Assembly: GCA_000934665.2 (NCBI GenBank)
Contig: JYFJ02001692.1
Span: 1 to 64,000, forward strand
Source of the DNA: Catajapyx aquilonaris
Taxonomy: Eukaryota
Reading direction: 5' to 3'
DNA length: 64,000 nucleotides
Part shown: piece by piece, positions 15,576 to 48,547 of the stretch
Layout of the letters: the number at the start of each line of letters is the position of its first letter
Position numbering within the stretch: the stretch's first letter is position 1
The notes under the pieces: model-generated
The model's database searches: none
What the model was told of the DNA's origin: nothing
The model's input: only the letters and a program-made list of their open reading frames with translations
Program-made: the position numbers and the translations under genes

Positions 15576-16511
15576 CGGAGTGGAAGCCATTCCTGTCCAA
15601 GCATTTGGACACACTGTGCAACAGGATGATGTTGCTGGGATAGCTTTGTATCCCAGTTTTTATGAATTAATTTATTACTAAATTGGTTTCATTACACATA
15701 TTTTGGAAATTTAGAAACAACAACTGCATGTGTAATCTAGGCTGTATTACAAAGTAATGCTCAAAAACAAACCAAATTGAATTGCAACAAAGAAATTAAG
15801 AAATTGCTATGATGAAAACAAGCATGCCTTCTTACATGTCAAGTACAAAAGTTCAGTGCAAGCATGAAACTGATAGCCCACTCCCCAGTACAGATGAGGA
15901 AAATAATAACTTGGTTTAACATGTTCAATTTATTGACATTGGGAAAAAATGGAATACCCCAATAGAGCAAGGGCCGGCTTGAAAAACTGGGGGAAGTGAA
16001 ATAAAACACATCACTATTTAATACTTGTACTATATCGCTCAAAAAGATAGCTTTTGAATTGAAACGCAATGCAAAATCGTCTTTACATCGTATTTTTTAT
16101 AACTGATATCGCCCGATAGAAGTTATTTTTTTGTAGCATGTGCCCCTAACCATGTGCCCTATTCTATAGTGTGCTACAGAATGGGGCACAAGGTTATTGG
16201 CACAACAAGCTACAAAAAATAACTGCTATCAGCCAATATCAGTTATCAAGAAGCGACCCATGAACCTGGAACCATGCTATATCTACACATTAGTGTTTCG
16301 CCTTTTTAGGACATATGATTTAGCATCACATGCTCAATGTAGCATGAGACTTCACCCTTTCCTCACAAAATGTAATATTTTTACATATACAGCCATTTAG
16401 TGATATGATTGAATTGATCACTGCATTGCATGTTTGGAAGAAGAATTTGCCTAAGCATGACATAGGAGTTATTTTAGTAACTGTCAGCCCCAAAAATAGC
16501 ACAATATTTAC

Positions 16512-16695
16512 GCTTCCTGAAATCCCATTTGGCCTCGTCGCTTCCGCAACATTTCTCCCAATGGACTGTTAGGCAGTTGCATGAACTTCTCAGCACAATG
16601 CCGGGTGTATGAGAATTTCCCGATGAAATAGCCAACTGTGGCAGCTGCAAGTGCCTTCGGTGTTGAGCCCCACCGTGGACTGGGGCGGAGGTAAC
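16512..16695 (-). CDS. OCIAD1: OCIAD1 exon 3 (YLRPSPRWGSTPKALAAATVGYFIGKFSYTRHCAEKFMQLPNSPLGEMLRKRR...)
   Basis: Hand translation gives the OCIA core (G..PK...GYF.GK.SY...C.EKF..L.NSPLG); phases 1 and 2 fit the neighbours; absent from the ORF track because it has no start codon. Confidence 0.92.
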
Positions 16696-17098
16696 CTAAA
16701 AATAGAATATCAATAATAAGAATTACTGCATTAATGTATTTTTTCCTGAACAGACCACAGTACCCCTTTTATTGCTCATGTTTCTCAATTAAACATTGCA
16801 GGATCATGCGAGACTTCTGCTTCATAGGTAGACTCTCAGGCGTGTTTCATTACAACCCTCCCATTTCCTCCTACATAATGAGCCTGTAATAATAATTAAT
16901 TTTTTAATAATTGTTTGGGTAATGCTTTCACCCTATCAGGGTTTATCACATGGACCTTTATTTGTTGTATACATTGGAGCCTTTATACGTATCGCCCGGG
17001 CCCACGGGCAGGATGAGCCTGTAAACCATAATGAGGACAAAATAACAATTTCAATGAGTATGATCAGAATTATGTTAATGAATTCTTTTTGTTACTGT

Positions 17099-17101
<3 letters not shown>

Positions 17102-17136
<35 letters not shown>
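17102..17136. repeat. (AG)n microsatellite
   Basis: Direct observation. Confidence 0.95.
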
Positions 17137-17138
<2 letters not shown>

Positions 17139-18849
17139 AAAGATACTAAGTAATGCGTGAGCATGGTGCTACAGGGAGGCTGCCCAGAATGTGTCCAGAA
17201 AACCAATATTGGCGGGGGGGGGGGGNGGAAGAGAGAAAGGAAATTGAACCCCCAAACAACTGTGGACTGAAATACATCGCATTTATTTTGCCAATGTAAA
17301 TCCAAAATGCATGTTTCCTGTATTAATTTTTGGAAAGGACTCAAGGGCGTTTTTGCGATGGAGCGGACATGAAGCGACAATTACTCTTTCCATAGAATCT
17401 CGTGTTTCATCACACCAATCGGATGCTCAACATCTCTACTAAGCAATGCTAACCTTAAAATTGCCCAGTGTTGGTGTTCTTTGGAACCAACTGCTCAGAC
17501 TTTCAACTGTGCGAGCCAACGGCCTTCAGTGTCTGGGGACACGCGCTGCATTTGGCGCGCTCTGTGAGCATTGCATTCATTCTGTCACTTCTCAAGCATG
17601 TCTGTTGGATGCAGCTTGATGTACTCTTTCAATTGATCAATTGATGTGTGTAAATTGTCGGGGGGAGGGGGGGGGGGGGNGGAATCTCTGTATGAGTCAT
17701 TTTCGGTAACGAACCTGAGACATCTGCAAGTGTTGGTTTGTTACCAAAAATATCAAAAAATTCCTGATGATGCAACCCAGTGCAGAAATCCATGTCCTAA
17801 AAACGTTGGTCCATTACCGTGTTTGTTTTCGCTCCTGTGGCGCTATCGAATGATACATTTCTGTTGGAATGATGGCAAAATTCAGTACTCTCAACATGGA
17901 ACTCGATGGAAACAAAATAATCCTCACGTTTTCCACAAGCATGGCAAATCACAATGAAAGTCACAAAGATTAGTCCGACAGTTGGTTAGTTATCTGCAAA
18001 AATGCCCCCAACCAACTCTCCAATACAGCATATTACTTAAGCAAACATGGAGGTCTGCTATGTGACAGGATCAGCCCCCTGTCACTCCTACAATACGGTA
18101 GTTTAATATAAAAGTCTCCGCCACACCTGGAATTTGGTGCTGGTGCCCCCACAGGAATCTATCGGTGGCAGCTACCCGAATCCTAATCTGCAAATGCCCT
18201 CCAAGGAAAGGACGGTTTGGGTTGGTTCCAAAGGTGGCCAACCGGAACCGACTCCCCCAGTAGATTCCTGTGGGGACGCACAAGAGCCAAATTCCCCGCA
18301 TGACGGAGACTTTTATATCAAACTACCGTCAACACAGGGCTAGGCAGGAAGAAACAGGGGGCTGGACAGGATCCTGTGCCCCAAAACAAACATCATTTCA
18401 CGTAATATTTTATTATTGGAGTTTTCTGTACCATCAGAATAGTAGTTTGAAGCTGTGCCTTGGGCATATCACAAATAGAAATCAAAGCAAAATACATCAG
18501 ACCATAATTATGTAACTTGTGGGATAAGTTAATTTACAAAATCCTTTTCCTCCTCCATTTCACCACAAATGCATGCAATGCATCTTGCTTTTCACAGACA
18601 ACATTGAAAAAACCCATAATTATATCTGTACTGACAGTGAGTAGATATGGCATTCATGTTTAAGCATTTTTGGGTCCTTTTAGTTATCGGAACTCTGAAC
18701 TTATGCCTGAAGTTGTTATTTGTGTGTAGCTTATTGCACCTGATTGAGGTGTCAAATTATTCACAGGTGTGGTCGAATATAACAGCTGGTGTTATAATGA
18801 GAACCTGACACACAACACTTGAAATTAATCTGATTAATAACTGTTGTAC

Positions 18850-18988
18850 CTGCTTTTACACCATAGTGCACACCAAAGGTCATCAGCGTTGCAATTGGAA
18901 GTGACCGAAAGAAGAAGCTCTCCCTGTTGCATTCACGCAGTGCCTTGTTTTCCTCTGCAGTAAACCTGTAATGCTGTAATGCCATTTG
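18850..18988 (-). CDS. OCIAD1: OCIAD1 exon 2 (QMALQHYRFTAEENKALRECNRESFFFRSLP...VKAG)
   Basis: OCIA-domain N-terminal motif EE.K.LREC..ESFF.RSLP; tttAG acceptor and GTAC donor. Confidence 0.92.
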
Positions 18989-21434: not shown

Positions 21435-21476
21435 ATGGTCATCAAGGAGTCGTGTCAGAAGAAGCTGGCCTGCAAG
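21435..21476 (+). CDS. Probable first coding exon of the SLC6 transporter (MVIKESCQKKLACK)
   Basis: AAGATGG start context; strong AAG|GTAGGT donor; phase 0 as required by the Met-less next exon; lies just downstream of a CCAAT-containing region. Confidence 0.55.
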
Positions 21477-24158: not shown

Positions 24159-24544
24159 TACCCCGTGCTAGGGCCCTAGGCCCTCTTAGGGGAGTGGAAT
24201 ACCACAATCCGGTGCAGGGGACAGGATAGGGATAATGAGGGGGGACTGGGGCAGGTGCAATCTCTCAAGTTGGGGGTCGTGTGCATCAGTCCCTCAGGGG
24301 ATGACCCCCTAGATGCGGATCAGAAACCTCCCACCGACACCGCACCTCCTCATGGACGGGACAAGGATAGGAAAGGAAGGAAGCGGCTGTGGCCTATTAT
24401 TTAGGAAGCAATCCCGGAATTCTCCTGGGGGGACCGTGGGAAACCACAGAAAACCACGGTTAGGATTGCCCACCCCGGGACTCGAACCCAGGACCTCCCG
24501 ATTAGCCGTCGAACACCTTATCTACTCCACCAAACTGCTTCGGT
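24159..24544 (-). mobile_element. tRNA-derived SINE, family A
   Basis: A-box, GGTTCGAGTCC B-box, conserved body GGTTTTCTGTGGTTTCC...TAGGCCACAGCCGCTTCCTTCC, shared tail. Confidence 0.85.
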
Positions 24545-24957
24545 TAAATAATAGTATTGTACAGTACATCATATCAATACATGCTGATATGTCACCCCCA
24601 AAATATGCGCAGATATCACGACCGTTGCATAACTTCGCTCCCAGACACGAATCTTTCCGAAATCTTACAGAAAAGGCTTGAATATCGAGATCAATGCGAA
24701 CCAGAAAAGAGCCTTGACGTCAGGAAGTTCCTCTATGCAAAACTTCCTATAAGCTAGAAAATGGACCGGTTATATAACCGCAGGCAGAAAAGCGACGAAA
24801 GTAACGAGCCCACACACGCTGGAGGCTGACAAGTTCTAATTAGCAACTCTGATTTCATTTAGATCTAGCAAAGAGTACTATAATAGAGTGCTCCCGTAAT
24901 GTGATTACATGGATGGAAAATTGATATTGAGTTGGTACCATTTGATTTGTTCTCTAG

Positions 24958-25190
24958 GCCCAGCAACTTCTTCCTGAGCATTCGTCTCACCATCTGCATT
25001 GTTGCGGAAACCCTGAAGAAGAAGAAGATGACGATAAGTCAACTCTGAATTTGTCTGAGGACAGGAATCTTCGAGGACATGACTTTGAGTCAGGACAGAA
25101 ACATAAGAAGGACAGGGGGAATTGGGCTGGAAAACTGGACTTCTTTTTGTCCTGCGTCGGATACGCTGTCGGCCTTGGAAACATTTGGAG
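24958..25190 (+). CDS. SLC6 Na+/Cl--dependent amino-acid (glycine-like) transporter, exon 2 (...[27 protein letters not shown])
   Basis: SNF-family TM1 signature; ctctAG acceptor and GTAAGG donor. Confidence 0.92.
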
Positions 25191-26366
25191 GTAAGGGACT
25201 TCCATCTTCTCAACCCAAGTCGGAGGGAAGAAAAATATTTAGATATTCAACAACAAAATTCCAGCTAAAATTCCGGCCACTTTTGCTTACAAATAATTGA
25301 GCTTCTTGGGCAAAATAAGTGGATGTGTGGTCATATAGCCCTGTACGGTTTCAAGGGGATGAACCTTAAATATTGCAAAACCGGGTTGAAAACAGAACTT
25401 CAGACCCTCGCGGATTGCAATGCCAGGTTGTGGAATGTCGAAATGCCTCCCGATTAGTGCTGTCCATATTTGGCCAGATAGTTGCGGACACTACAAAAGG
25501 CTTGCACCATTTTTCTGCATTCCAGCTGGACACTAGTCACAATGACCTCTGTCAAAATGAAATATTAATATTTTAAATTCTTTTTGTAGTCGAGATAAAG
25601 AGTGAATAATGCATTCCACTGGTTAAGATTCCATTGTTCTGACCCACAATGAGCAATAAGGGTCAAGTCCGTCAAAAAGTTCATATAGGCCTAATGTTCA
25701 ATTTGTAGTCGTTGAACTTTGACCCGTAGTGTCTAGAAGCTTTTTTGAGTAAAAGTGTGACTTGTGCCACCAGTTACGAGGGTCATAACATGGGGGATGC
25801 TTTACCCCATCACAGTTGCCATGGAAACTCACACCTACACCTCCGCCCACCACCTCCAGAAAAGGTCAATACCATACAGCCAATTTTATCGATTTGATGT
25901 CTCATTGCCTGAACCTTCCATTATGTCAGGCTGATTAGTGTAGTATGTTAACGTCTTTTTCCTTTTTTTCCCCACGCATACATCTAAGTCCATGCTCTCA
26001 CATGGTGTTCTTTTCCGGACTGATAGGTCCGAAAGGAATGCTCTTAAGATGTGTGACCCTGACCTGCGCCGGCATTCTTGGCCGGCTTAAAACGAGGTTT
26101 CTGTGTAAGCCGGCTGCCTGTCAACTGTACAATAACCCACCATTTTTCTATTTTTTTTAATGAAAAAAAATATGGCATGTCTAGAAAATGGCCTTGTCGT
26201 GTTGAAAACCACTTTTCTAATCAGCTTTTCACGTCTGTTCTTTTGTTACACCGGAATATGTACAGTACTGCCAGGAACGAACAGCTCTACACGAATCAAT
26301 TTTTGTGTGGATAAAATGGTACCCAAACGTAATCTTTTTTAAAAAATCTCCATTTTTGAATTCCAG

Positions 26367-26530
26367 ATTTCCGTATCTCTGCTACCGAAATGGCGGAGGC
26401 GCATTCCTGATACCGTACTTCCTGTTCCTGATACTCTGTGGGATGCCACTCTTTATGTTGGAAATCTCATTCGGACAGTTTGCCAACCTGGGACCCATCT
26501 CCATCTGGAAGATCTCCCCTCTCTTCAAGG
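26367..26530 (+). CDS. SLC6 exon 3 ([17 protein letters not shown]...ISPLFKG)
   Basis: SNF signature [15 protein letters not shown]; canonical splice sites. Confidence 0.95.
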
Positions 26531-29500
26531 GTAAGTTGAAGATGCACCCCCCTACTAATCAGAGCACCCTCGTCTAGAAAGCGTGTCTGAAAGCATCCAA
26601 AATTAGGACCAATAAGGGAAAGGAATTTTTTTTCCCCAGGAATTTTGTGTGATGAAGCACAAAAAAAGGTAGAGGGGGATCTTGCTGTCATTTACTCCCA
26701 AAATATAACCCGTCGCAAGGTGACATATGTTACGAGGATATATATTTATAGCTTCTCTCGGCCTTTCAAGCCAGCGGTTTTTATTCACTCGATTCTACAT
26801 CGTGGTTATGTACTATAGCTATGCATCTACGTAAGTCTACGTACAGTACTATTTATGTCCACATTCAGTTAGATGCAAAGTCACATTGACCGGAGACTGT
26901 TTTGTATAAGAAAAGAAAAGAAGGGTTTCGTTACATGTTGCTAATTATAAGACCATGGTTTCGTATATCCGAGACGGTTGGTCCTGCAGACTTTGACACT
27001 GACAACTGATACATGTTTTGTAAATTTTTGTCTCAACCTTGATCTTAGCAGTGACTCAGAAACGAAACAATGGGTCTTAAAAATGCTGATATCTGTTGTT
27101 TACTTGAAAATGATCTGGCAGACTTGATTGTTGTAGAGCGGATATGTGCACCTTGAAGCTTGAACCATGGTCGGGGTTCGTCTTTCTTCAACATGTTTTG
27201 CATTGCAACATTTGCAATTCCCGCCTCCTGAAAGTCATATCGGTCGTAACTGCTGCGTGGGCTACTTATAAATATCTTGCACAGGTGTAAGATACATTAT
27301 TGCGCATTAATTCTGGAGCTAAGGTTCAACTGTTGACCCGTGTTGACCTGTCTGGATGACAGTCTGGTTGCGACAATAATTGTAGGGTGTCTCAAAGTAA
27401 TTTGAACCCTTGGGTCTAGTACGGAAATTTGGGGGCTACCCACATGCATGGAAAACCCAGGGGGGGGGGGGGCTATAGTCAAGGTCAGTGGTCAGAGACC
27501 AATGTTTTGTGTTGCTACCCTTGGTTCGATGATGTGCTAAGATATGTAGGGTACCGAGGGGCTTCGAAAGGAGACTGATTGATCGCACGCAAAGGTGAGG
27601 AATCACGGAATTGGGTATGTCAACCTTGTGCAAGAAGATTTAGCGGTCAACTTCGGTCAAAGGGTGACGTCATTCGCCCTTTTAAATGAAAAAGTAATCA
27701 TCGGTCTGAATAACACTGTCGAAATCATTGGCTACACGATTCAACCTCGTGACCACCATTCTTCTAGTAACAAAGGCGAGAAGATTTTCTTTGTTAATAA
27801 CGTACCATTTCTTAGTATGTCCTCGTGGTTCACGTCACCACTTACGTAACTAACGATAACTATCCTACAATTATCTCACCATTTCGTAAACAACAGTATA
27901 GTTACAAGCCTAATGTAATTTACATCCTAAAAGCATAACTGTTGTTAGTTGAATCTGTGAAATATTTCATAATTCTCCAATTTTGGGATTCCATTCGTTT
28001 AATATGTATTTCGCACGTCAGCAGGCTGCCCCGGAGTGACGTCGTATATCGGACCGTGAAAAGCTCCGTATATCCGCGAACTATTGATCTCCTTTTCAGC
28101 TAGACCGCCAAACTAAATGGACGCGAAAACTGCCCTACCACAACAGTTGGCACTACGCCATAGGGAATCATGCAAGGGCAGCCTCCCGGTTTTATATCTT
28201 TTTTTGCACGAGAACAGGGGCATTGGAATGTGCACATGTTCTGGCATACGTTGACGTCAGAGTTCGAAGAATATTTCGCAATTTTGTGGTCAATTCAAAC
28301 ACGGCAGGAACATGCCCGCTAATGGACTCGAGCTCATTAGTTCATTCATAGATAAGTTTTATTCTGCTCTCATTGTCAGTAATCAGCCATTTATATGTAT
28401 ACACATATTGTTATCAAAATTACGCAAAGTGTTTCGTAGTGAACTCATGTTTCTGACTAATGCGTGGTTCACATATCTATTACTAACTGTAAGACCAGAT
28501 TAAGACATGTTGCACCATTCTTATCTAATAAGCGAATTTTGCCGAGTTTGAGGGATATTCTATAGCAAAACCGGATGTGTGTTTATGGCACATGTAAACT
28601 AGTTACGTCTCAAGCCCGACCAGCAAATCGCAAGTATTGAGGTATAAAACCCGATGTCTCCTCTTTAAGGCGAATATACTACAGGAAGGAAAAACATGTC
28701 ATTAGCTTCCTTTGAGATTGTTTTCATTTTCAGTGGTCTCCGCTAACATTCACACGCATCGGGCATGTCCGCCAGAAAAAAGAGATGGGTACATATATAA
28801 CCGAAGGTCGTTGTAGCCGAATCAATAAATTTTCACCCNCTCTCTCTCTCTACGCCATATCAAATTAGCGTATACTCCGAAAATGGACGAAATTGAAACC
28901 CGAGGAGAAATAATAACAAAGGCAAGGGAATGAACCTTGGTATCGCAATTAAGCCATTATAAAGGAACCTTTGCAAACTACGCAGCAACCTCGGTACGGT
29001 AATGACCCAAAAGCGAATGCAATTAGCGTTAAGTTGTTCCCAAGTGCATGATCTTCCAGAGATTTTGATGACTCAGGGATGTTGATTTTCTCAGAGCATG
29101 TTTGCAGCTGGAAATTGGCATTTATTATTCAGTCTGACACCTGCTTCATGACGTATAGATTTCGCACACGTTCAAAGAGATGCCTTTGATGTCAACGCCA
29201 ATCCCCCCCCCCCTCCTAAATATTCAGATTACTTCTAAGAATACCGACGTTGGTATATCGTCGGTTACGAAGAACCAAAGATTTACAGAGAATATTATTA
29301 TTACGAAGAAACAGGTTTGCATATTTTAAAAAGAGGTAGCATATACACGCCGCGGGCAATTATAACTTTGATTGATTGCCGCTTTCACGTGGGGTAGGCA
29401 TGCACTCGTTTAATACTTGTGCTCGTAAAGAGGATAATTAAGTAATTACCCTGCCGGAGTTTTTTTTTGTGGGGATGTCTCTAGACAGTATGTAAAGAAA

Positions 29501-29728
29501 AGCTAATTAAATGGACCGGTCTGTTTGCCAGCAAAATTATTTTCAATTTTTATTTATTTTATTTATATTTATTTTTATTTATACATATTAAATAATAAGT
29601 GCCAGTTTACACATAGCAGGAGTTCATATGCAAGGTGATGGTTGGCAAGTGTTTCCGACAGAGCCCATTCCTGCCGCAGCCATTTTCGAACAGTTCCAAA
29701 ACATCGATCCCAACCGCGCTGAAACAAG

Positions 29729-30316
29729 ATGGCTGCCTTCAGTGGGATGTACTCTTTGTCGCACATACGTTGTATAGTGCTGTACCGTACTGCTAAAGTG
29801 CGTGTGTTATCTGGCAGCTTCTGTCGGTTGCACACCGCCACCGACTTGGCACCTGAGCTTTCCCGTTTCAAGCCGGACTCATGGACCAACATAACAGCAC
29901 GTATAACGTCACACATGGGAAGAGGATTACATGTGACACCGGCACACCCTCTCTTTTTGGCCAAAGAAAGAATAGTTCGGTACATGAACTCGAGGTACAC
30001 CAACTCCAGGGGGAATCCTCTGTTCTCGGTGCATGAGCGGTTGAGTCCTGTGGTGACGGTGCATCAGAATTTTGATTCGTTGCTGGTGCCGGCAGACCAT
30101 CCAAGCAGAAGGAAGAGCGACTGTTATTATTTGGATGCAAGACATGTACTAAGGGCACACACCAGTGCACACCAGTGCGACCTAATCCAGATGGGATTGG
30201 ACTGCTTTCTGGTGGTTGGCGATTGTTACAGAAGGGACCAGATTGACAGGACACATTACCCTGTATTTCATCAGGTTGAGGCCGTCAGATTATTCTCAGC
30301 ACAGCACCTTTTTCAG
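29729..30316 (+). CDS. FARS2: Mitochondrial phenylalanine--tRNA ligase, exon 1
   Basis: Basic, acid-poor presequence-like N-terminus; SPVVTVHQNFDSLL, HPSRRKSDCYY, LRAHTSAHQ, GDCYRRDQIDRTHYPVFHQVE; CAG|GTAC donor. Confidence 0.96.
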
Positions 30317-30739
30317 GTACCTATGAATAATTGTAAAGCCTGCTAGCTGAAATGAGAGATTACTTGACGTACTCTCAGTTACAGTATGTGAGCTGATACA
30401 AATGAAATTCTAAATCAAGCAAAGCTCAGATTGCAATGTGCATAATGCGTAGAAGGGCCATTATGATGGCATTTGTTATGATAAGTAAAATGATTTATAA
30501 TTTTGTATCTTTGAAGCTACTTTATTGAATGTGACTCTTCAGATGGCATTTAGTTTGCTTGATCCTGTATGCTAGCACATGATGATGTAAAATAAGAGTG
30601 GAATTTTCTTCCCACTGATAGCTACTGCTAACTTAGCAGTACCAATGTTGGCCATGGCACTGATATGTTAACAATAACTATCAGTGGGACGAAAATTCCA
30701 CCCTAAGTCGAGTACCAGATTCAGAAAAGTTATTTTACA

Positions 30740-31325
30740 CGAGGGCCATTCAAAAATGATTTACACTTTATTGTTTTGCCACAAATACAGGGCCCATGCA
30801 GGTCGGCAGATAGGCATACATTATCGATAGAATCCTCCTGGAGCTGAACACACAGGAGTTATGGGTGTGGGAACCTGTCCAGGCCCTCCAGGAACCACAT
30901 TTTGGAGGTGCAGTGTACCCACTCCTGGACAACTGCTCGCAGTCACCAATTTCCTCGAAATGGGATCCCTGGCGAAGGGTGTTTTCATGGATCTGGGTTT
31001 GGGTTGGGTTTGGGTGCTTCCACACCCATCTCACTTTCCTGGCCTGCCCCCGAGTTACTTTCACCTGTTTGGAGCCATGAAAAAACCCCTTCGGCGACTC
31101 TCCATTTCGAGGACATTGTTGATGGTGAGCAGTTGTCTGGAAGTGGGTCCACCGCACCACCAAAACGTGGTTCCTGAAAGCCCAGGAGAGGTTCCCACAC
31201 CTGTGGCACCAGTGCATTCGGCTCCAGGAGGATTCTGTCGATAATGTGCGCCTATCTGTCGGCCTGCATGGGCCCCATATTTGTGGCAAAAAAATAAATT
31301 CTAAATCATTTTGGAATGGCCCTTG
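30740..31325. mobile_element. mariner-derived foldback element in the FARS2 intron
   Basis: CGAGGGCCATTC-type TIRs; internal VLPHPSHFPGLPPSYFHLFGAMK matches the mariner HPPYSPDLAPSDFHLF motif. Confidence 0.8.
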
Positions 31326-31764
31326 TATGTACCAATTGGGAAGATTAAATGTGGAAAACTTAATAATCATTGAATATATTAGTTTATACCATCCAAAACA
31401 TTAACCTTTGGAAAGTAATGTGAGGGAATTTTCTGTTTCTGAAGAACCAGGTGTTCGTAAGGATAATATAGCCACATACACAACTTCTAACAACACTTCA
31501 GTTAGTACATGTAGGACCATCCCCAGGGCAAGGTCTTGGGGCCTTTGAATGTATTTGGAGCAGCTACGTGTAATTTTTGATTTTTGAGGATTTTGTGTCC
31601 TGGAAATCATACTGTATTAATTTCATTAGACCACAAACGAAATAATTTTACTTAACCTTTGCAAAGGGCCCCACATTATGTACAGTACCATGGGCTTCTC
31701 ATAGCCTGGGGAGAGTCCTGATTTTATAAGCCACAGTGTTAATGGCACCTCTTGCCATTTTCAG

Positions 31765-32496
31765 GAGAAGCCAGGCATCAAGTTTCCTGATCTATTTGAA
31801 ACAGGGGAACGAACCCCACTGAAGCAGTCATGTCACACAATTCAAGCTAGAGAAGGTCTTGAATCAGACCTGAAGAGCTGTCTAGAAGGACTGACAAGTC
31901 GCTTGTTTGGTCCTGACACACCAATCCGTTGGGTAGATGCCACATTCCCTTTCACACACCCATCTTGGGAGATGGAGGTACAGCTAGGTGGGACCTGGAC
32001 TGAAGTGCTTGGATGTGGTATAGTTGAGCAAGAAATCCTGAACCGATGTGGTGCACACACAAAAGTTGGATGGGCATTTGGACTGGGATTGGAGCGTTTA
32101 GCGATGCAAATGTATGCCATACCAGACATTCGCCTGTTTTGGAGTAATGACACAGGACTTTTGTCTCAATTCAAGAATGCAGATCCTGATGATGTCATCA
32201 AGTACAAGACAATAAGCCAATATCCACAGTGCACCAATGACATCAGCTTTTGGCTTGGGAGTGTCGAGTTTGCAGAGAATGATTTCTATGACCTTGTTCG
32301 CACTGTGGGTGGAGACATGGTTGAACAGGTGGAATTGTTGGATAAATTTTTCCATCCTAAGAAAAAGAAGCACAGCCAGTGCTACCGGATAGTGTACAGG
32401 CACATGGAACGTACTTTAACACAGTTGGAGGCCAGTGAGGTCCACAAGAAGATAGAGGAAGATGCAGTGAAACAACTTGGGGTTGAGATTCGATAG
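31765..32496 (+). CDS. FARS2: Mitochondrial phenylalanine--tRNA ligase, exon 2
   Basis: FPFTHPSWEME, EVLGCG, GWAFGLGLERLAM, IPDIRLFWS and a C-terminal anticodon-binding domain (NDISFW...YRIVYRHMERTL); tttcAG acceptor in phase 0; AATAAA at about 32818 and 33113. Confidence 0.96.
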   Translation, partial: EKPGIKFPDLFETGERTPLKQSCHTIQAREGLESDLKSCLEGLTSRLFGPDTPIRWVDATFPFTHPSWEMEVQLGGTWTEVLGCGIVEQEILNRCGAHTKVGWAFGLGLERLAMQMYAIPDIRLFWSNDTGLLSQFKNADPDDVIKYKTISQYPQCTNDISFWLGSVEFAENDFYDLVRTVGGDMVEQVELLDKFFHPKKKKHSQCYRIVYRHMERTLTQLEASEVHKKIEEDAVKQLGVEIR

Positions 32497-33271
32497 AGTG
32501 TGATGGGGCATTGCAGGTGATCTGTGTAATACAAGAGTGATTACACAGAAATGGTCAAAGTTTAATTATTTATAATGGCTAAACATAATGGGCTGGAGGT
32601 TGGGGAATGTTTTGTTGTTTCTATTGTCAAAGTGATGGCAAGTCTTGGTGGGATAATTTTAGAGTTGACAATACTTTGTCGTAATAGCTGTAAAATCCCT
32701 CTAAGTTCACATTTTATGTTTAACATCATCGCAATGGCATACTGATCCTGGCACTTGTCCCATGGTTTGTAATTTGGGGGCTTGAGACTTTTTTTTTCTT
32801 CTTCTTTGATGAAAAGAAATAAAATCAGAATCACCTTTCCCAGGACTCATCTGTAAGTAGGTAGTATACTGATATGAACCAAAGACTCTAGCTCTCATGT
32901 TCAACCCAGCCAAGGGTGTTTCTGAGGGTGTCAGATAAGTAAAAATGCTCATACCAGTAGTGGAAGATCTAAAACTCTCACAATAACACTCATAACTTCA
33001 TTTAAAAAGTGTGATTATCCTCTGTGGATATACAGTATTGAAACTGATGTGTTAGCTATATTCCTTTCAGTTACACTAGTAACAGTGTGACTAGATATTT
33101 TGTAGTCAATTTCAATAAAAAATTTCTGATGTAGATATTTCATATGCTATGGCAAAATTTCATTATTGCAGGGTTAAAGACCTCTTGAATAATGCATGTG
33201 ATGCATATGGTAAAAAACTGGCAACATTTAAAAATGAAACTTAGGAGCAAAAAATGTTATTTCACTTATTT

Positions 33272-33523
33272 AGGGCGACACGGTGGCCGAGCGGTTAGCG
33301 CCGCAGCCTTCCACCTCTAAGGTCCCGAGTTCGATCCCCGGGTCGGACGGAGGATACTTATGTGGATAGAGTTTCGATGGGTTCTCTCCGTGTTCGCGTG
33401 GGTTTTCTCGGGGTTCTCCCGTTTCCTCCCACTAACAAAATCCATCACATTACAGGCAAATGATTAAAATCGGTTATTCAAAAGATGATCCCCTAAGAGG
33501 CCCAAGGGGCCTATCACGGGGTA
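33272..33523 (+). mobile_element. tRNA-derived SINE, family C (V-domain-like body)
   Basis: A-box TGGCCGAGCGG, B-box AGTTCGATCCC, (TTA)-rich tail, 15-bp TSD TTATTTCACTTATTT (33257-33271 / 33547-33561). Confidence 0.88.
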
Positions 33524-34428
33524 TCCATTATTATTATATTATATTATTATTTCACTTATTTGCAAGTTTATGCATGAAAATATGGAAGAGCTAGAAAGAA
33601 TTATTTCTCACAGGATGGCCATTGTGTACTTTTGCATAACACAAGGGTTTCTCCTGCAGTCCTTGGTATGTTTTCTGTGAAAAAGTGAAAGATGGAGGTT
33701 TGTATTATTGGAGAATCTTTTTATTTGAATAATTGCCTGAATTATGTTATGATGTGGTCTAGCGCTAGTTTTAACACACAAATGCCCGATTGCACCAACC
33801 GAAATTACGATCTGATAGCTCCTGATGGATTGTTAGGAACCATTTTAATGTATGCTAACGATCTGTTAGGAGCTATCGAATTAGTAATTGGTAATTGGTG
33901 CAATCAGGCAAAAATGTATGTAACAAAGCATACACCTGTCCTAACTCCCATGATTCTTCTTAAGGCTGTGTTTACATATGAGCAATTTGATAGGCGATTT
34001 GACCAAACAATTGGTTTCATAGCTCAGTGATGCTCATCACTGATCAAATCACTCACATGTAAATGCAGCTAGAGCTTAAATTGTTGTACACTCTGTAACT
34101 AGATGTAACTAAGCCTGTGTTGCTAATACCTATGCAATGTAAAATATAAAATTAATACATGATGTTTGCTTGTGATCTGTCATCCAATGCTGCAAGATTA
34201 ATTTTTCCCCAAAATATGTAGCTAGCTAAGTTGCATATGGTTATTGCACATCGTTCTTTAAAAGGCAGTAGCCACCGACTGTCCTATATTTTAATCTCAC
34301 ACCATCTGGATGACCCACCACAATAAAACAGTTATTGCAACAAGTAACACATTATTCTAATGTCAGTAATGTGATCCTATTTAATGTACTTGCATCTCTG
34401 TAAATGCCAATTCTCTTTTTCTTTTCAG

Positions 34429-34747
34429 GATTGGGCTATGGAATGGTGATAATCTCAGGGATAGTGTGCATCTACTACAACATCATAATTACGTGGACCC
34501 TATACTACATGTTCTTGTGCTTTCGTCGTGTGGTACCCTGGGCTACATGTGGCAACTGGTGGAATTCTGAGCATTGTGTGGGGGTTGAAAATGAAGATCA
34601 AGTGTCGTCAGTGGTAGAGGCACTTGCTAATTCAACCTCATCCTTCCTTGATGTTGAGAATGCAACTGATTTCATTGCAAATAGCACCAATGCCACTGTC
34701 ACTGAATTTCAAGGTGGACGGGTCACCGCAAGTGAGGAATTTTGGCT
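34429..34747 (+). CDS. SLC6 exon 4 (TM3 and extracellular loop 2)
   Basis: GLGYGM...YYNIIITW, PWATCGNWWNSEHC cysteine pair, four N-X-S/T sequons, SEEFW; canonical splice sites. Confidence 0.95.
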
Positions 34748-34769
34748 GTAAGTAATCTATTGGAATTTT

Positions 34770-35048
34770 GTGAAAAGATCAAGGTAGGGTAGAGCGGGGT
34801 AAGTTCTAATGTATGGCACAAGGTGGCAGGAGCTATCGAAAATCACGTAAAACGGACAGGGAAGAGTGCGAGGGGAAGTGCAAGGTGCAGTGCAATGTCT
34901 CACATGGTCGTTTTGTGAACTCCCCCAGGTGGTTAGTCTCGACCAACTCTGCACAAGGTGAAGGGGGGGAAGCCCGGGCTTGGGATCGAAACCGGGACCC
35001 TTACATCCATGTGTGCATACGTTTCCACAGTGCCACTCTACCTCCCCT
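34770..35048 (-). mobile_element. SINE family D, degenerate copy
   Basis: Reverse complement of GGATGTAAGGGTCCCGGTTTCGATCCC; colinear with 63040-63261. Confidence 0.65.
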
Positions 35049-37579: not shown

Positions 37580-37641
<62 letters not shown>

Positions 37642-37887
37642 CATACCCCGTGATATAGGCCTCCTTGGGCCTCTTAGGTGATCATCTTTTGAATAACCGT
37701 CTTTAATCATTGCCTGTGCTGTGATGGATTTTGATTGCGGGAAGAAACGGGAGAACCCCACGCGAACACGGAGAGAACCCATCGAAACTCTATCCACATA
37801 AGTATCCTCCGTCCGACCCGGGGATCGAACTCGGGACCTTATATGTGGAAGGCTGCGGCGCTAAGCACTTCACCACCGTGTCGCCCT
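37580..37887 (-). mobile_element. SINE family C with an expanded (TTA)n tail
   Basis: Reverse complement of the 33272 copy; the (AAT)n run at 37580-37640 is its tail; TSD-like TTTTCCAnTTACTTTAA flanks. Confidence 0.88.
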
Positions 37888-38772: not shown

Positions 38773-39269
38773 CAACCATGTGCTTCAGTTGTCGTCTGGC
38801 CTTGAAGAGATGGGCAGCCTTCGATGGGAGCTTTTGGCCACGTTGCTTGTGGCTTGGATCCTAGTATTCTGCTGCCTCTTCAAGGGTGTGAAGAGCTCTG
38901 GAAAAGTTGTGTACTTTTCTGCCACCTTCCCTTATGCAGTGTTGGTTATTCTGCTGGTGTATGGGGTGACCCGACCCGGGGCTGGGGAAGGAATTTTGTT
39001 CTATCTGACACCACGCTGGGAATTGCTCTCCTCCTTTGAAGTGTGGGGGGATGCAGCCACACAGATCTTCTATTCAGTGGGCCCTGCCTGGGGAGGGCTG
39101 CTGACTATGGCCAGCTACAACAAGTTCAACCATAATTGCTACCGAGATGCATTCATCATCCCACTGATCAACTGTGGTACCTCTGTCTTTGCTGGGTTTG
39201 TCGTATTCTCCGTCATTGGGTTCATGGCCCATGTCACCGGGAGACCTATCAGCGAGGTTGTCTCACAGG
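38773..39269 (+). CDS. SLC6 exon 5 (TM4-TM7)
   Basis: [55 protein letters not shown]. Confidence 0.96.
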
Positions 39270-40603: not shown

Positions 40604-42074
40604 CCCCTTGAGCCCCAGCCGCCTAGAATCTAGGCGCTGAGAACTCGACCGCCAGGTACCAGCTATACCCGCCACCGCCTAGTTTTCTGCTTACTCGTGC
40701 GCTGAAGATACGACCAAGATATTTTACAAATAATAACAGCTCTACTTACCCGTTCAGGGACAATGTTATGAATGTGTTGAAAACAATTTCCCTCCCATGG
40801 ATGTCCGTAAATTAATTTCCAAAAATATCACCGCACAGTATACCCGCTATATTTCCGCTTAGATTTATGCCTAGATTTTCCCGCCTGTTCAACTTACAAG
40901 TACTCTGAAGGTAAGGGCAAGATATTTTACAAATAGTAACAGCTATACTTACCTGTTCATGCAAAACACAGCGTATGTATTGGAAACAATTTTCCTAGAC
41001 TATAAGTCCGTAAATTAATTTCCAAAAAGATCGCTGTAAAATATGAAAATCTAAGTACTAACGGCCAACTGGTAGGCTGATTTAATTATGAAATACGTTA
41101 AAATATACTGGATAACAATCTTGAGAACCATGCCAGAAGACTTTCTTGAGATCGTTGTACTTTCTGAGAAATAAATAAATACTTTTCTGCAGCTTGCCTG
41201 TCACTTCGGATTACTCCCAAATTTACTTGTTTCTCGAAAAGTACGACGATTTCAGCAAATCCATTTTTTATTTGTTTTATCCTGTGATAGGCCTACATAG
41301 GCCCTGTTGGGGGGTGGTACACCACCATCAATTTTCTTGAATTATTTTTCTTTCCTCCAGTGCAAGGGGACAGGATAGGGATAATGAGGGGGGGGGGACA
41401 CTGGTGCAGGTGCAATGTCTCAAGTTGGGGGTCGTGTGCAGTCCCTCAGGGGGCCAGTTCGCCAAGATGACCCCCGTAGATGCGGGTCAGAAACCCCCCA
41501 CCGACACCTCACTCGCCTCCTCATGGACAGGTCAAGGATAGGAAAGGAATGAAGCGGCTGTGGCCTATTATTTAGGAAGCAACCCTGGAATTCTCCTGGG
41601 GGGACTGTGAGAAACCACAGAAAACCACTGTTAGGATTACCGGCCCCGGGACTCGAACCCAGGACCTCCCGATTAGCAGTCGAACACCTTATCCACTCCA
41701 CCAAACTGGTTCGGTGATTTCAGCAACTCCAGTTGACACCATTCTCAAAATTGTTATTCCGTATATTTTAACATATTTCATAACTAAATCAGCCTAACAG
41801 TTGGCCGGCAGTACTCTACTTTAGAGTTTTTACAGCGGTATTTTTGGAAATTAATTTAAGGACTTCTATGGGAGAGAAATTGTTTGCAACACATTCATAA
41901 TGTTTTCCTGGAATGGGTAAGTAGAGCTGTTATTATTCGTAAAATTAATATCTTGTTTGTATCTTCAGGCAATAAGCAGACGAGTAAGCTGAAAACTAGG
42001 CGGTGGCGGGTATAGCTGCCACCTGGCGGTCGAGTTCTCAGTGCCTAGATTCTAGGCGGCTGGGGCTCAAGGGG
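40604..42074. mobile_element. piggyBac-like foldback element carrying a SINE A insertion
   Basis: TTAA|CCCCTTGAGCCCCAGCC ... GGCTGGGGCTCAAGGGG; internal arms homologous to 19183-19921. Confidence 0.8.
41264..41715 (-). mobile_element. tRNA-derived SINE, family A (full length)
   Basis: A/B boxes, shared tail, TSD GATTTCAGCAAnTCCA at 41248 and 41716. Confidence 0.88.
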
Positions 42075-42187: not shown

Positions 42188-42300
42188 GTCCAGGGCTGGC
42201 ATTTGTGGTGTACCCTGAGGCTGTGACGCACCTACCTGCCCCGCCAGTTTGGGCCTTCCTTTTCTTTTCTATGCTTTTCACTATAGGGTTGGATTCCCAG
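42188..42300 (+). CDS. SLC6 exon 6 ([38 protein letters not shown])
   Basis: Conserved GPGLAF..YPEA and GLDSQ; AG/GT boundaries in phase. Confidence 0.95.
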
Positions 42301-45300
42301 GTACGGCAAACACATTTAGAGTTACACAAGAAAAAAAAGCAAGTTGGGAGTACTTAACCCGAAGACTTGACCCAACAAAAGAAAATCCAAGTCTTTCCTT
42401 CAAGTCAACTCTGTTTTGCTTATTGCAACATTGTGTGTGGGGAAAGCAGAATGTTATCAGTTGCAAAGATCAGGCTGGATGTAATTAATATTCTTAAAAT
42501 GTATTCATTGTCAAAAATATTACAAGAGAATCCTATTGTTGCCTGCGCATTGATAGTTAAGTGAAGGAAAGGCTGACTCACGCTCAGCACTTATCTGCAC
42601 AGTTTACATATGTGTTTTGTCCAAAGTAATTTGATATTCATGTAAACTGGGCTGTCAAGTGAGAGTGTGCTGTTTGCTTGCGATTGTTTTGTGGCACATA
42701 CCATTAGTTCCCAATCTCTTAACGTGTTTCTGCATGGGGAATCGCAAGCAAATATTGAAATTAATAACATGGCATTGGTTCTGCCACTACGTATATGGCT
42801 TGTGACAATGGCTTGTGAGAAATTTTTTGACAAATTATATTAAGCCCAGTATAAGTGATGGAGCCAATGCATAACGCTACTTTCATAATCACCAGTCATC
42901 TCATGCCCACCCGTTTTCAACTTAAAACAGCGTTTGATGCATCATCCTCACTGTTATCACCCATCATGCATATCGATCGTCTATACTCCCTGCAAACACT
43001 GCTTTAAGTTGAAACATCATTTCCATTAGTCTGTGCTTCCATATAATCACACATTAATGGTAAAATCAATACAAAAGTACCTGTAAAACCAGTATTGTCA
43101 TTTCTTATTTTTTGATAATAATTATACTTGGCTTGTTTACAAACTGATATGTCAAGTGACATATAGAAGCACAGGAAGGAAAGAATGGTCCATATTAAAT
43201 TCTTGAAAAGGTTTAGATTGTTTTTTGAATTAACATTGTACCCTCCCATGCCCCCCCAAAGAATCAAAATTATAAATTGTTACCAATTTTAAAGAGAAAA
43301 CATTGTTTATTGCTATAATTGGACCATTTTGTCTGTAACAGAAAAAAAAAAAAATGTTTTTAAGTGTTTAGTCTCCTTTCAGATTTCTTGCTCTCATGGA
43401 AGCCCAAGGATGTAGGTATTTTTGGGTAGATAAAAAAATGATATTTTTTGAAGAAAGGAAGTCATATTGTCGTGGTGGGGGTTGAGAAGCAAAAGAGTGT
43501 GAGTTGTGCTGAGTGTGGTTTGTTGCCCTGGCTTTGTTGTTATCTGGCTTTTATTCAATATTATAACTTTGTTTCTGGTGACATGAGCTTGTAGAAATGG
43601 TATAGTGGAACTTTGCTTGTGCAGTTGTGCTTTGGTACCAGGAGTCGTAACAACGGTATGTAACATGAAAAATGCACTTCTGAGATAGAAAGTAAATTTG
43701 CAAAATTTAATGAGTGCAAGTAAGGTTCTACTGTGTACATGGTTTTACATGAGTTATGTAGTCATGTGAATGGTGCAGAGGTTAATTAGGATTATCTGTT
43801 ATTGAAACAAATGTGCATTGTATAAAAGATCATGATAGTACTTTTCAAAGGAAATTGTGTTTTTGATATTGCAAATTGTTAAAATTGTTTAAGCTGGTCA
43901 CAAATTGTTATGTCAGTAGGGCCTGCATTTTCAATTGGCATAATGTATTTGTGATATTGTAAAAAATTATGAAGTGTGTTGGAATTAAATTGAGCTGTAT
44001 TACTTTCCAATATTAGCAATGTAGTGCCAACTGTACTTTGGAAATCTTAGTCAAGAGGGGCTTATTCTTGGTAAACGTGATTGTTGACAAGGTTTGGACA
44101 CGTCTTTTGCTGCTTCTAAGAGTGCACCACAGTAGTTTTGGTAATGTGAAATATGCTGTAATGCAAACTTGATTGTCAGAGCTATTGCAATGATATTGTA
44201 AGTTTTACACAATTTATACATTTGTTGTAATCTGCCAGTTGGTTCCTAATTGTACTGTGACTTGGACTTTTGTGATCCAAAAGTTGGTGCACTGAATTAG
44301 AACAACCCCCACCATTCTGGTACTTCCAAGCTACCCAACTATTCTATGTACTTTATTTTTGGAAGTTATTATTTTATGGGCTGGATTCGTCATTGGGACA
44401 GCTGCCCTTTTTTGCATTCGTAAAAAAGGGTGGTTGTGGTTAATATGGAAACCTGTTCTATTTTTGCATCATTGATATTAGAAGTGTTATCCCAAAGGCG
44501 ATACCAATTCCTTTCTGTTGCTTCTTGATGTGTTGTTTCGTTTTTGTGACCACCATAGAGAGCCCTGCCCCCTGCCAAGAGCCTGTGTGGGCGGCGAGGG
44601 CAGGCCAGCAGCACAGCACCACTTCCACGGCGCCAGCAAGCCTCTTTGGGGTATTGGCACCTAGGTTCAGTCACCAAAAATGTCGAAAGACAAAAAAAAA
44701 AAAAAGTTGACTGCACATCATTTCATCAGAACACCATTATCCCTCCTCCATCTCTTTATTTGTGACCTGTAATCAAATGGTCTTTACTTAGAAACTTTTG
44801 AACCTGAATTTTGGTATGTAGAAATTCACTTGAGGGATGTAAATGCATCAGGAGTTACCATTTATTGCTTCCAAATTGTACTGGTAACTTTGATTATAAG
44901 TACCGGTACCTTTGATCAAGTGCCGTTAACTTTTGGGTGCATGTAGAGCTTAACCTTTGTGAGCAAGCACGCACCAGTTTTTTAATGCAAATACATTCAA
45001 CCTAGATTCAGTCACATTCAGTTTTAATCCATATACACTTTTTTCAATTTACTGTGATGTAAGTACATTCAAAAATGCTATCAGCTTTGCCTCATGTACC
45101 ACTTAGTTTCATTGATGACAGGAAAATTTGACCCCCTCCAAAAATTTTCATCATCATCCCCCATATTTTAAACATAAGTCATCACCCTTATATATCTTAA
45201 TATTTCTGAATTTTAGTTTCTTATCTATCTCTCTCCTTTCCTATTTTCGATTTCTCTGTGATGTACAGTACTCTTCTCTCAAGAACTTGGAGTAGATAAA

Positions 45301-45980
45301 AAAATCTTAAGTCTTTTTAAGAGTTTGTCACACTTCTGATCTTTTGTTATGTTTACTTTCATATCTGTCCCCAAACAATATAATTTTATTTGAGTTGATT
45401 TTGGAACAGTTTTGGTTTCAGGTTAAGGCTTGAGTTTTACTGGGCCCTTTGTTGTCCTCTCTTTTTACTTGCACACTCTTTGCTGCTACTGCTCAAGGCT
45501 CCTGCTGTGACGATGAAAAGTATTAAATAGTACGTGCAGACATACCTTGAAAGAAGAGGGTTGCTGTGAAACTAACATGTCCAAACTTGCTTTACTGACC
45601 TTTACGAGTTTTATTCCAGGAGAGCAACTCTCTTCTCTCTGGTTGTTTGCAAGTGAAACTCAAGCCTGCTGGCCGAAATTGGTCAGTTAGAAAAAAAAAT
45701 CAGACTAATTGCTTTGCAAAAGAAAAAATTAAAAAATAAAATACACAAGCATTAGTAAGGACTGTGTTTTGGAAAGCATATTTTCTTACCGATTTTTTCT
45801 TTTGCTGATGGTAACCGTTCAGAGTGGTTTTGCTGACCACGCTTCCAATTCCCTGCCTTATGTGATGTGAGTGGAATTTGAACCAAAAAGCATAAACACA
45901 GTAAAAAAAAATATTGAAAAATTCATGGCTGACCTTTCGCAATCTAATCTCTGTGCTCTTGCTCTTTCTCTTTGGCACAG

Positions 45981-46109
45981 TTTGGCATGTTTGAGTGTTT
46001 GATCTCTGCGCTCTCTGATGAATTTCCTGTACTGAGGAATCACAAGAGGATGTTCACAGTGGCCATGTGCGGGCTACTCTTTATCCTTGGAATTCCATGT
46101 GTCATGCAG
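45981..46109 (+). CDS. SLC6 exon 7 (FGMFECLISALSDEFP...GIPCVMQ)
   Basis: TM8-TM9 pattern; cacAG acceptor and GTGAGG donor. Confidence 0.92.
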
Positions 46110-46237: not shown

Positions 46238-46337
46238 GGTGGAATGTACATACTGCAGCTGATGGACTGGTACTGTGCTGCTTTTTCCTTGATGATCATC
46301 TCATTTTTTGAGTGCATTGTGATTGGATGGATTTATG
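46238..46337 (+). CDS. SLC6 exon 8 (GGMYILQLMDWYCAAFS...IGWIY)
   Basis: GG.Y..QL.D.Y TM10 motif; canonical splice sites. Confidence 0.93.
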
Positions 46338-46452
46338 GTAAGTCTCCATGATATTAATTGAAAACTGTCCAGTATAAGCAGCATACTGTATTGCCATTGG
46401 GTAATTCCACCATAACTGACGCAACATTTGGAAAGGGATTCATGTACTTATA

Positions 46453-47987
46453 CCTTACCCAAATCCCATGGTTTACGCATGCCCCCCAGTTTGTGAGTCA
46501 TTGCAGTGTAATTGGTACAAAACATAAGGGTCAGTGATAACCTCCCCGTAAAAACGTGAGTTAACATGTAAGAAAGGAAATGCATGTGCCAATGGTTTGA
46601 TTTGGTCCATACACAAGGGTCATGATGAGTTTGTACAATGGAGCACCCAATACTCATGGGAAGTGATATTACGCGCACCCCCCTGTCACATGATATCATC
46701 GCTGTGTGTCCATGTGCCATTGCAAGCAAACGTAACTCCCATGGTTCTCAGCCCATCTTGGCTATAAAAGGTAGGAGAAACCACCTCCCATGAATCATCA
46801 CAGAGAAAAAACATTGCGAGAAGAGGGTTGCCTGTTTCACTAAGGGAAATCATCAAAAAGTATAGGGATGGTGTTGCTCTTTGGTAGATAGGCTGGGAAC
46901 TGTTGGTTCCAGAGTCTACAATACCCAAGTTCCTAAAGCAGTACGACCCCACCGGAACACTTGAGCGAGGGCGGAACACTTGAGTGAGGGAAAAGTCCAG
47001 AGCCACGAAAGTCGACAACAGCATGAGCACACCGGATGCTGCGCTGGATTGTCAGGAAAAACAGACCAGGCAGGTCCTATGAGTCAAAGGGGAAACCACC
47101 TCCCAGTTCACAAGTCATTGCAGAGTCCTTCACCCTTCTGTTGAATGACTCTGCGACTGATGTTTCCATACACCACCTCAAATGGTGATTCGTCAGACCA
47201 AATCACCTTCTTCCAATCGTTGAATGTCCAGTTTAGATGGTCCCATGCCCATTGGTAGCGACGTTTCTTCAGGACTCTGGTGTGGAGTGGTTTCCGCTTT
47301 GACTTGTAGGACCTGTACCTCATGTCCTTCAGCCTCTTCATGGTTATTTTCGTCGAAATTGGACTCCGTGGCCTCTCCTGCCACAATGCTGCAGCCTCCG
47401 CAAAAGTGCCTGGTCTGTTTTTCCTGACAATCCAGTGCAGCATCCAGGGTGCTCGCGCTGTTGTCGACTTTCGTGGCTCTGGACTTTTCCCCTGCTCATC
47501 TGTTCCAGTGGGGTCGTACTGCTCTAGGTACTTGGGTATTGTAGACTCTGGAACCAACAGTTCCCAGCCTATCTACCAAAGAGCAACACCATCCCAATGC
47601 TTTTTAATGATGTCCCTTAGTGAAACAGGCAACCCTCTTCTTGTCATGTTTTTTCACTGTGATGAGTCATGGGAGGTGGTTTCTCCTGCCTTTTATAGCC
47701 AAGATGGGCTGAGAACCATGGGAGTTATATTTGCATGCAATGGTACATGCACACACAGCGATGATATCATGTGACAGGGGTGCACGTAATATCACTTCCC
47801 TTGAGTATTGGGTGGTCCATCGTACAAACTCATCATGACCCTTGTGTATGGACCGAATCAAACCATTGGCACATGCATTCATTTCCTTTCTTACTTGTTA
47901 ATGCACGGTTTTATGTGGAGGTTATCACTGACCCTGCGATGACTTGCAAACTGGGGGGTGCATATGAACCAAGGGATTTGGGTAAGG
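46453..47987. mobile_element. Tc1-derived foldback element with arms of about 600 bp
   Basis: TA TSDs; 46453-47075 is an inverted copy of 47405-47987; the minus-strand ORF has Tc1 motifs (RKPL...RYQWA...WKKVIWSDES). Confidence 0.88.
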
Positions 47988-48547
47988 TATTTATTGGAAT
48001 GGCAAATGTTAATGAAAAAGGAATTTAAAATTATTCCCATGAGGCTGCCTCCTGATAGCTTATTGCCATATTTTTAGAATTTCACAACAGTAACTTGAAT
48101 TGACTCTGTAAAATATTAATATAATGTAACTGACGCAACATGAAAAGAGACGAGCTCCTTGGGGGGGGGTGCTGTAGTGACATGAAACCCCGTGACCTGA
48201 ATGTGTTTAGAAGGAATGTTACAACTGCTATGTACAGTAATCTACACTTGAGGAGCAATTTTGTGATTATTTTAGACCATGCCTGTTGATGTTCATGTTT
48301 TCAGGAGAAATTAGGATTAACGAAACTGACACAACAAACAGTGGAAAGTTGCATCAGTTATGACTATTATATCTGAGTTTTCCATGGTTCTGCTGCTTTC
48401 TGGTAGCAGAACGTTGCTACCATCATCGTTCATCTGACATAATGGCATAATGATCTGCTTTCAATAAGCTATCTACTACCCCACAATACGAGGCTTCATT
48501 TTTGGATCATTGTCTCTGTTCACATGGAATTACCCTATTTTATTCAG

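Follow-up and report, generated by a model that had tools for sequence, protein, structure and literature searches.

A FARS2 gene nested on the same strand within an intron of an SLC6 transporter gene in Catajapyx aquilonaris

The locus described here belongs to a window of 64,000 nucleotides of Catajapyx aquilonaris (positions 1 to 64,000 of contig JYFJ02001692.1, assembly GCA_000934665.2), which has the character of animal nuclear DNA, with a G+C content of about 42%, introns of the GT-AG type and numerous interspersed repeats; the best named matches point to an arthropod-like invertebrate. Two genes of the + strand are at issue: a transporter gene of the SLC6 family and a gene for FARS2, the mitochondrial phenylalanyl-tRNA synthetase (PheRS), the latter (29729-32496) lying wholly within one intron of the former (26531-34428). 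The initial annotation had described a FARS2 gene of 439 codons, free of internal stops, with its own ATG, a single intron, a stop codon and AATAAA signals, in sense orientation within a 7.9-kb SLC6 intron, and every part of this description is found where that annotation had placed it. The two are most likely separate genes forming an ordinary same-strand host/nested pair, with no sign of regulated coupling between them.

The host gene and the nested gene

The features of the pair are listed below in window coordinates. The proteins used as references for the host include P0134, a barnacle 'glycine transporter 1-like' protein, and P0128, a transcript-derived protein of a close relative, which both served as tblastn queries. 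X5 is a sequencing run of the same organism, of unrecorded kind; it is treated as RNA on the ground of its contigs, which are exon-bounded and spliced. What is said of the sequencing runs refers to the longest pieces and to part of the joints, with 187 joints and 36130 pieces beyond those.

21435..21476, + strand: SLC6 coding exon 1, starting with MVIKES; an N-terminus common to P0128, P0132 and P0134 (motif search in the + frames), followed by GT; putative boundary
24958..25190, + strand: SLC6 exon 2 (tblastn with P0128 and P0134; positions 1-26 of the Pfam family SNF; X5 contig 24985-25186)
26367..26530, + strand: SLC6 exon 3 (100% identity to P0128; SNF 27-81; X5 contig 26365-26529)
26531..34428, + strand: SLC6 intron 3, phase 1, 7898 nucleotides (nt), containing FARS2 (GT..AG borders)
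29729..30316, + strand: FARS2 coding exon 1, 588 nt, 196 codons, ATG at 29729 (reading frame, Pfam and PDB matches; X5 contig 29988-30158)
30317..31764, + strand: FARS2 intron, phase 0, 1448 nt (predicted from GT..AG borders, frame and conserved linker length)
31765..32496, + strand: FARS2 coding exon 2, 729 nt to 32493, then TAG at 32494-32496 (Pfam and PDB matches)
32497..32823, + strand: predicted FARS2 3' untranslated region, taken to end with the first AATAAA at 32818-32823 (X5 contig running on from the coding part to 32609)
34429..34747, + strand: SLC6 exon 4 (SNF 83-149; tblastn)
38773..39269, + strand: SLC6 exon 5 (SNF 159-327, expectation value (E) 2.6e-71; X5 joint 39268->42187)
42188..42300, + strand: SLC6 exon 6 (tblastn; spliced X5 contig)
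~45975-46109, 46250-46345, 48547-48645 and 48844-49131, + strand: SLC6 exons 7-10 (tblastn with P0134; SNF 435-522; approximate borders)

The ten coding exons of the host follow each other in order and without a stop codon from 21435 to about 49131, as traced by tblastn with P0134 and P0128. They cover the SNF profile and residues 11-613 of P0134. Against the close relative's protein, exon 3 is 100% identical to residues 93-148 and exon 5 shows 92% identity. The SNF profile is matched over its whole length by the host exons in the right order (positions 1-26, 27-81, 83-149, 159-327, 435-475 and 475-522), and the stretch between 327 and 435 is filled by the tblastn alignment of P0134 residues 378-494. 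As judged from these alignments, the predicted host product is an SLC6 protein (sodium:neurotransmitter symporter) of the glycine/proline-transporter group, GlyT-like, and the predicted gene is intact.

The intron that houses FARS2 is bordered by AAGG/GTAAGT at the end of exon 3 (26530) and TTTTCAG/GATTGG at the start of exon 4 (34429), the slash marking the border. Exons 3 and 4 most probably belong to one gene, because they are contiguous in the SNF profile (81->83) and because all four homologues fetched (P0128, P0132, P0134 and P0135) run unbroken (...FKG-LGYG...) over the junction. With its 7898 nt, intron 3 is the longest of the nine SLC6 introns.

Within this intron, the two FARS2 exons, bordered by the donor CAG/GTACCT (30316) and the acceptor TTTTCAG/GAGAAG (31765), join into a reading frame of 439 residues with no internal stop. 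The FARS2 stop codon is followed by AATAAA signals at 32818, 33114 and 34322 and by one ATTAAA at 33463. The Pfam family tRNA-synt_2d, the class II catalytic core of the PheRS alpha type, is recognized in exon 1 (positions 43-131, 62.4 bits, E 5.9e-17) and continued in exon 2 (positions 140-246, 101.4 bits, E 7.5e-29), both well over the cutoff of 19.8. A complete FDX-ACB domain, a ferredoxin-fold anticodon-binding module (positions 1-94 of 94, 65.2 bits, E 7.3e-18), follows at the C-terminus in exon 2, on the same chain as the core. The closest solved structures are chains of human mitochondrial PheRS, which exon 1 matches at E 4.5e-57 and exon 2 at 5.6e-89, values far from those of chance, the best alpha subunit of the bacterial or cytosolic enzymes coming far behind (3.8e-14 and 8.3e-20, respectively). 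The human mitochondrial enzyme (PDB 3cmq, 5mgh) is likewise a single chain with a class II core and a C-terminal FDX-ACB domain. Its alignment is ungapped over window residues 47-195 and 205-438, exon 2 corresponding to residues 170-403 of the human chain.

Where the protein matches of FARS2 carry a name, it is that of mitochondrial PheRS, from molluscs, arthropods or vertebrates. Identity over the whole protein does not exceed 61% among the 120 best full-length homologues; in an alignment with these, 124 columns reach a conservation of 95% or more, and the window protein agrees with 121 of them and has no insertion or deletion. The three conserved residues that are changed are 166, 266 and 328. 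As judged by eye, the first 40 residues or so, a possible mitochondrial targeting peptide, are basic, with no acidic residue; they precede the part that aligns to the mature human chain. The nested gene is an intact FARS2 orthologue, not a pseudogene. As an observation of its own, residue 166, which lies within the G-D-V-Y-R-R-D motif of the catalytic core, is a Cys, the homologues having Val at this place in 120 of 120 cases.

As the initial annotation had proposed, the host intron is of phase 1 and the FARS2 intron of phase 0, and chimeric splices between the two genes are indeed out of frame: a splice from SLC6 exon 3 into FARS2 exon 2 runs into a stop 8 residues on, and one from FARS2 exon 1 into SLC6 exon 4 does so 6 residues on. 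Its further point, that host transcripts have to read through the FARS2 promoter and poly(A) sites and skip its splice sites, follows from the layout, which puts the FARS2 start region, both splice sites, three AATAAA and one ATTAAA in their path. No other gene was recognized within intron 3. Its 11 further open reading frames (ORFs) of at least 75 residues gave no Pfam family, and Rfam and ARAGORN gave no RNA gene. Over the whole window, 143 of the 162 ORFs of at least 75 residues were scanned with Pfam, the other 19 overlapping exons of the two genes or else the repeat of the FARS2 intron.

RNA-like contigs and continuity of the locus

The X5 contigs fall on both genes: for SLC6, on exon 2, on exon 3 and, in spliced form, on exons 5 and 6, with 39268 joined to 42187; for FARS2, on exon 1 (29988-30158) and on exon 2 with the 3' untranslated region (32275-32609). 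None of them differs from the window by a single letter. The presence of contigs on FARS2 and on SLC6 exons 5-6 indicates that both genes yield RNA in one sample and that host RNA reaches past FARS2.

Two other observations were made with the same run. Intron DNA behind SLC6 exon 3, which is single-copy, is covered at a depth of 1.07 over 26573-27163, not continuous with the exon-3 contig; the ORF 26591-26815, which lies under this signal, has no Pfam match. P0128, the relative's protein, and an RNA-like contig of X5 alike run on past the exon-6 donor into SLC6 intron 6 (42301-42357), where the window frame adds 18 more residues before a stop at 42355. This extension could reflect intron retention or a truncated isoform of the transporter common to two species.

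The genomic continuity of the locus can be followed in the DNA runs X1-X3, which come from one sample, date from 2014 and are possibly the assembly's own source; their longest pieces are considered here. Single-copy contigs cover 24800-28838, 28886-30631, 31219-33298, 33559-34064 and 34041-34841. Breaks within intron 3 thus fall at 28839-28886, where an N stands beside a CT run, and at 30631-31219 and 33298-33559, both in repeats. The two repeats are the following.

30595..31326, no strand assigned: high-copy inverted-repeat elements in the FARS2 intron, with pairs 30739-30963/31102-31326 (225 nt, 83%) and 30595-30644/30655-30704
33272..33551, + strand (host sense): very high-copy short interspersed repeat of about 280 nt between FARS2 and SLC6 exon 4, recognized by its copies and its depth

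Depth in the DNA runs rises to 2650-6641 over the first of them, compared with about 20-30 nearby, and to 70766-117385 over the second, which has copies in the window at 37614-37887 (88%) and 57129-57323 (86%), both in opposite orientation.

Several points weigh against two separate genes in a host/nested arrangement. The joint 26530->34429, which would attest the removal of FARS2 from host RNA, is absent among the X5 joints considered, and the exon-3 contig ends flush at the exon borders (229 letters, of which 26365-26529 are matched, with 17 and 47 more letters outside). No X5 contig among those considered spans the FARS2 intron. At the DNA level, no X1-X3 contig considered links FARS2 to exon 3 or exon 4, and since these contigs break three times, the placement of FARS2 between the two exons rests on the assembly. 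Finally, a conserved, presumably broadly needed enzyme is an atypical nested gene.

The contig breaks leave room for a scaffolding artefact, in which the two short-read contigs covering about 28886-30631 and 31219-33298 would have been wrongly put into a gap of the SLC6 intron, FARS2 belonging elsewhere in the genome. In favour of such an error are the three stops, with no contig considered bridging exon 3 to FARS2 or FARS2 to exon 4, the single N at 28839 beside the CT microsatellite, and the 2014 runs, which may be the very data from which the assembly was made. However, real sequence, with no run of gap letters, is found at all three breaks, two of which are high-copy repeats, where short-read graphs always break. 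Around the remaining one, at 28839, depth is about that of single-copy DNA (13-20, versus 17-32 nearby). The FARS2 exons are moreover correctly ordered and oriented, with no duplicated flanks, and smaller bridging contigs may exist outside the pieces considered. Such a misplacement looks very unlikely, and a true nesting of FARS2 in the SLC6 intron is preferred.

Other elements of the window lie outside intron 3. Upstream of SLC6, on the opposite strand, is an OCIA-domain gene of two exons (16511-18988; PF07051, E 3.5e-17 and 1.3e-13). A tRNA-Ser(GCT)-like sequence (41638-41710, - strand; 32.7 bits with Rfam, also found by ARAGORN) is embedded in a repeat at 41348-41938 with a depth of about 70000-104000, which is probably a tRNA-derived short interspersed element; from ORF translations, sequence resembling this repeat also seems to occur at about 24313-24681. 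Transposon remnants comprise a Tc3-type transposase helix-turn-helix in an SLC6 intron (47111-47572, - strand), a weak DDE_3 match that stays under the cutoff of Pfam (10836-11087, + strand) and an RNase H fragment (58632-59102, + strand).

The FARS2 intron and the origin of the nested gene

The window FARS2 gene has a single intron, whereas human FARS2 is a very long gene with several coding exons. Relative to the exon border deduced for cockroach and vertebrates, the window intron is shifted downstream by 3 codons (9 nt). In cockroach, the border is placed before [LV]-F-x by the protein P0256, which has a single residue ahead of a 248-residue C-terminal part shared with P0035, as expected of alternative first exons; the same border before [LV]-F-x is seen in frog, cow and ray isoforms (P0280, P0309 and P0329). 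In the window, the intron follows L-F-Q, and the surrounding linker of 18 residues is equal in length in all proteins compared. The 9-nt offset would be real if the predicted GT-AG model is right.

Comparison of the donor and acceptor junctions of this intron (10-mers at 30307-30317 and 31755-31765) shows agreement at 9 of 10 bases, versus 2-6 of 10 for five host introns. Of the 280 CAGG sites of the window, only three are as good a match to the donor 10-mer, and these presumably include the donor and the acceptor themselves. The resemblance may reflect chance, an intron that has slid, or the re-gain of an intron by way of a target-site duplication; transposon-derived introns that use such duplications are reported (PMC9860276 and PMC11282704). 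The ends of the FARS2 intron are single-copy in the DNA runs, its middle alone being repetitive, so the intron does not belong to a present multi-copy intron-generating family.

These features bear on a possible relocation, in which an intronless processed FARS2 copy would have entered the SLC6 intron, replaced the ancestral gene and later gained its intron through a target-site-duplicating insertion. The single intron 3 codons off the cockroach and vertebrate break, the junction match with so few equals in the window, and the precedent of transposon-made introns all speak for such a history. The marks of a processed retrogene are nevertheless absent from FARS2: it is not intronless, the 1448-nt GT..AG intron being needed for both frame and homology, no poly(A) remnant in the form of an A-run is found behind its poly(A) signals, and no direct repeat of at least 12 nt, as a target-site duplication might leave, flanks the unit. 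Neither do the single-copy intron ends favour a transposon-made intron. The junction match itself may be due to chance, since TTTTCAG/G is a plain acceptor consensus and the codons for L-F are T-rich, and the junction is in any case a predicted one.

Protein searches with FARS2 exon 2 gave a best identity of 66%, and no near-identical or paralogous copy from this organism or a close relative among the matches listed. When 23 species were paired by eye, FARS2 and a listed GlyT-like SLC6 gene were on contigs of equal length in none of them, a weak indication, as the comparison draws on the 120 best SLC6 matches, which are only putative orthologues. In the barnacle Pollicipes, for example, which supplies the best named SLC6 match, the contigs of FARS2 and of a GlyT-like SLC6 gene differ in length (47363072 and 44118722). 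The position of the FARS2 intron neither proves nor excludes relocation, and the full scenario of retroposition, replacement and intron gain appears very unlikely. If it were true, an essential mitochondrial translation enzyme would have come to rely both on a young intron and on the skipping of its gene in all transcripts of a neuronal-type transporter gene.

Comparison with known nested genes and proposed working

A gene lying within another gene is a common arrangement. In Drosophila melanogaster, almost 10% of genes take part in nested structures, and 71.27% of the nested genes lie on the strand opposite to their host, so that 28.7% are on the same strand (PMC3814207). Same-strand nested genes are single-exon in 72.53% of cases, the others having a median of one intron, and Table 1 of the same study counts 50 including genes with intron-containing same-strand nested genes. 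Drosophila nested genes also evolve faster and show expression in a smaller number of tissues (PMC3814207). In mouse and human, the bias towards opposite orientation is described as slight, and nested genes favour long 5' introns (PMC11694760); for human nested genes, the share lying opposite to the host is quoted as about 63% (PMC3192792). The general statements of the initial annotation, that nested genes are mostly antiparallel and often tissue-restricted, agree with these surveys.

The FARS2/SLC6 pair resembles the Drosophila pairs in several respects: the nested gene lies inside one same-strand intron and has few introns (the median being one in multi-exon cases), and mis-splicing between the two genes is the expected cost. 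It differs in the nature of the nested gene, typical Drosophila examples being fast-evolving, narrowly expressed and often testis-biased, whereas the window has a conserved mitochondrial aminoacyl-tRNA synthetase. The preference of mammalian pairs for a long 5'-proximal intron has its counterpart here in the longest intron, number 3 of 9. In mammals, an animal lineage that differs from that of the window, the two orientations occur almost equally often (PMC11694760). A third group for comparison consists of imprinted nested retrogenes that are reported to cause premature polyadenylation of their host (Wood et al. 2008 and Cowley et al. 2012, cited in PMC11694760); the geometry of the FARS2 pair would likewise allow the activity of the nested gene to shorten host transcripts. 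The imprinted genes are, however, intronless retrocopies with allele-specific promoters, whereas FARS2 has an intron and is without retrocopy marks. No short host isoform tied to FARS2 was seen. A literature search pairing 'FARS2' with 'nested' retrieved, among the 10 of 17 matches listed, no nested FARS2 gene by title and no title or abstract in which FARS2 appears. The layout fits the known pattern, the sole atypical trait being that the nested gene encodes a conserved enzyme instead of being young and narrowly expressed.

The proposed working of the pair is as follows. FARS2 would most likely be transcribed from a promoter of its own within the roughly 0.9 kb before the ATG, and one of the poly(A) signals of the unit itself would set the end of its transcripts. 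Host transcripts would traverse the entire FARS2 unit, which exon 3 to exon 4 splicing would remove along with the intron. In Drosophila, poly(A) signals are silenced while they are intronic (PMC3890989), and by analogy the FARS2 poly(A) sites would be ignored as long as they stand in the unspliced host intron. Mis-splices between the two genes, which are out of frame, would be discarded. Nesting would most likely represent a neutral or mildly costly by-product of a long 5' intron.

A very unlikely alternative, raised by the initial annotation, is a functional coupling, in which FARS2 transcription or its poly(A) sites would control the host by premature termination or interference, as at imprinted nested retrogenes of mammals, so that transporter output would follow FARS2 activity. 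The same-strand geometry permits it, the segment from the FARS2 stop to exon 4 contains three AATAAA and one ATTAAA, premature host polyadenylation dependent on a nested gene has precedents (cited in PMC11694760 and studied in PMC3192792) and X5 gives some RNA signal at 26573-27163 in single-copy intron DNA. Against it, the host RNA contigs with exons 5-6 show read-through, the use of intronic poly(A) sites is very rare in Drosophila (PMC3890989), and co-expression of Drosophila nested pairs does not exceed that of random gene pairs (PMC3814207).

Since same-strand nesting is frequent and intronic poly(A) signals are as a rule ignored in Drosophila, no special mechanism is required for an ordinary host/nested pair of FARS2 and SLC6. 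The pair is a fresh example of an already well-described arrangement and opens no long-standing question. It adds a conserved housekeeping enzyme to the same-strand, intron-containing nested genes, the rarer class in Drosophila statistics. Its main relevance is for annotation, as gene finders may fuse the two genes or drop one of them.

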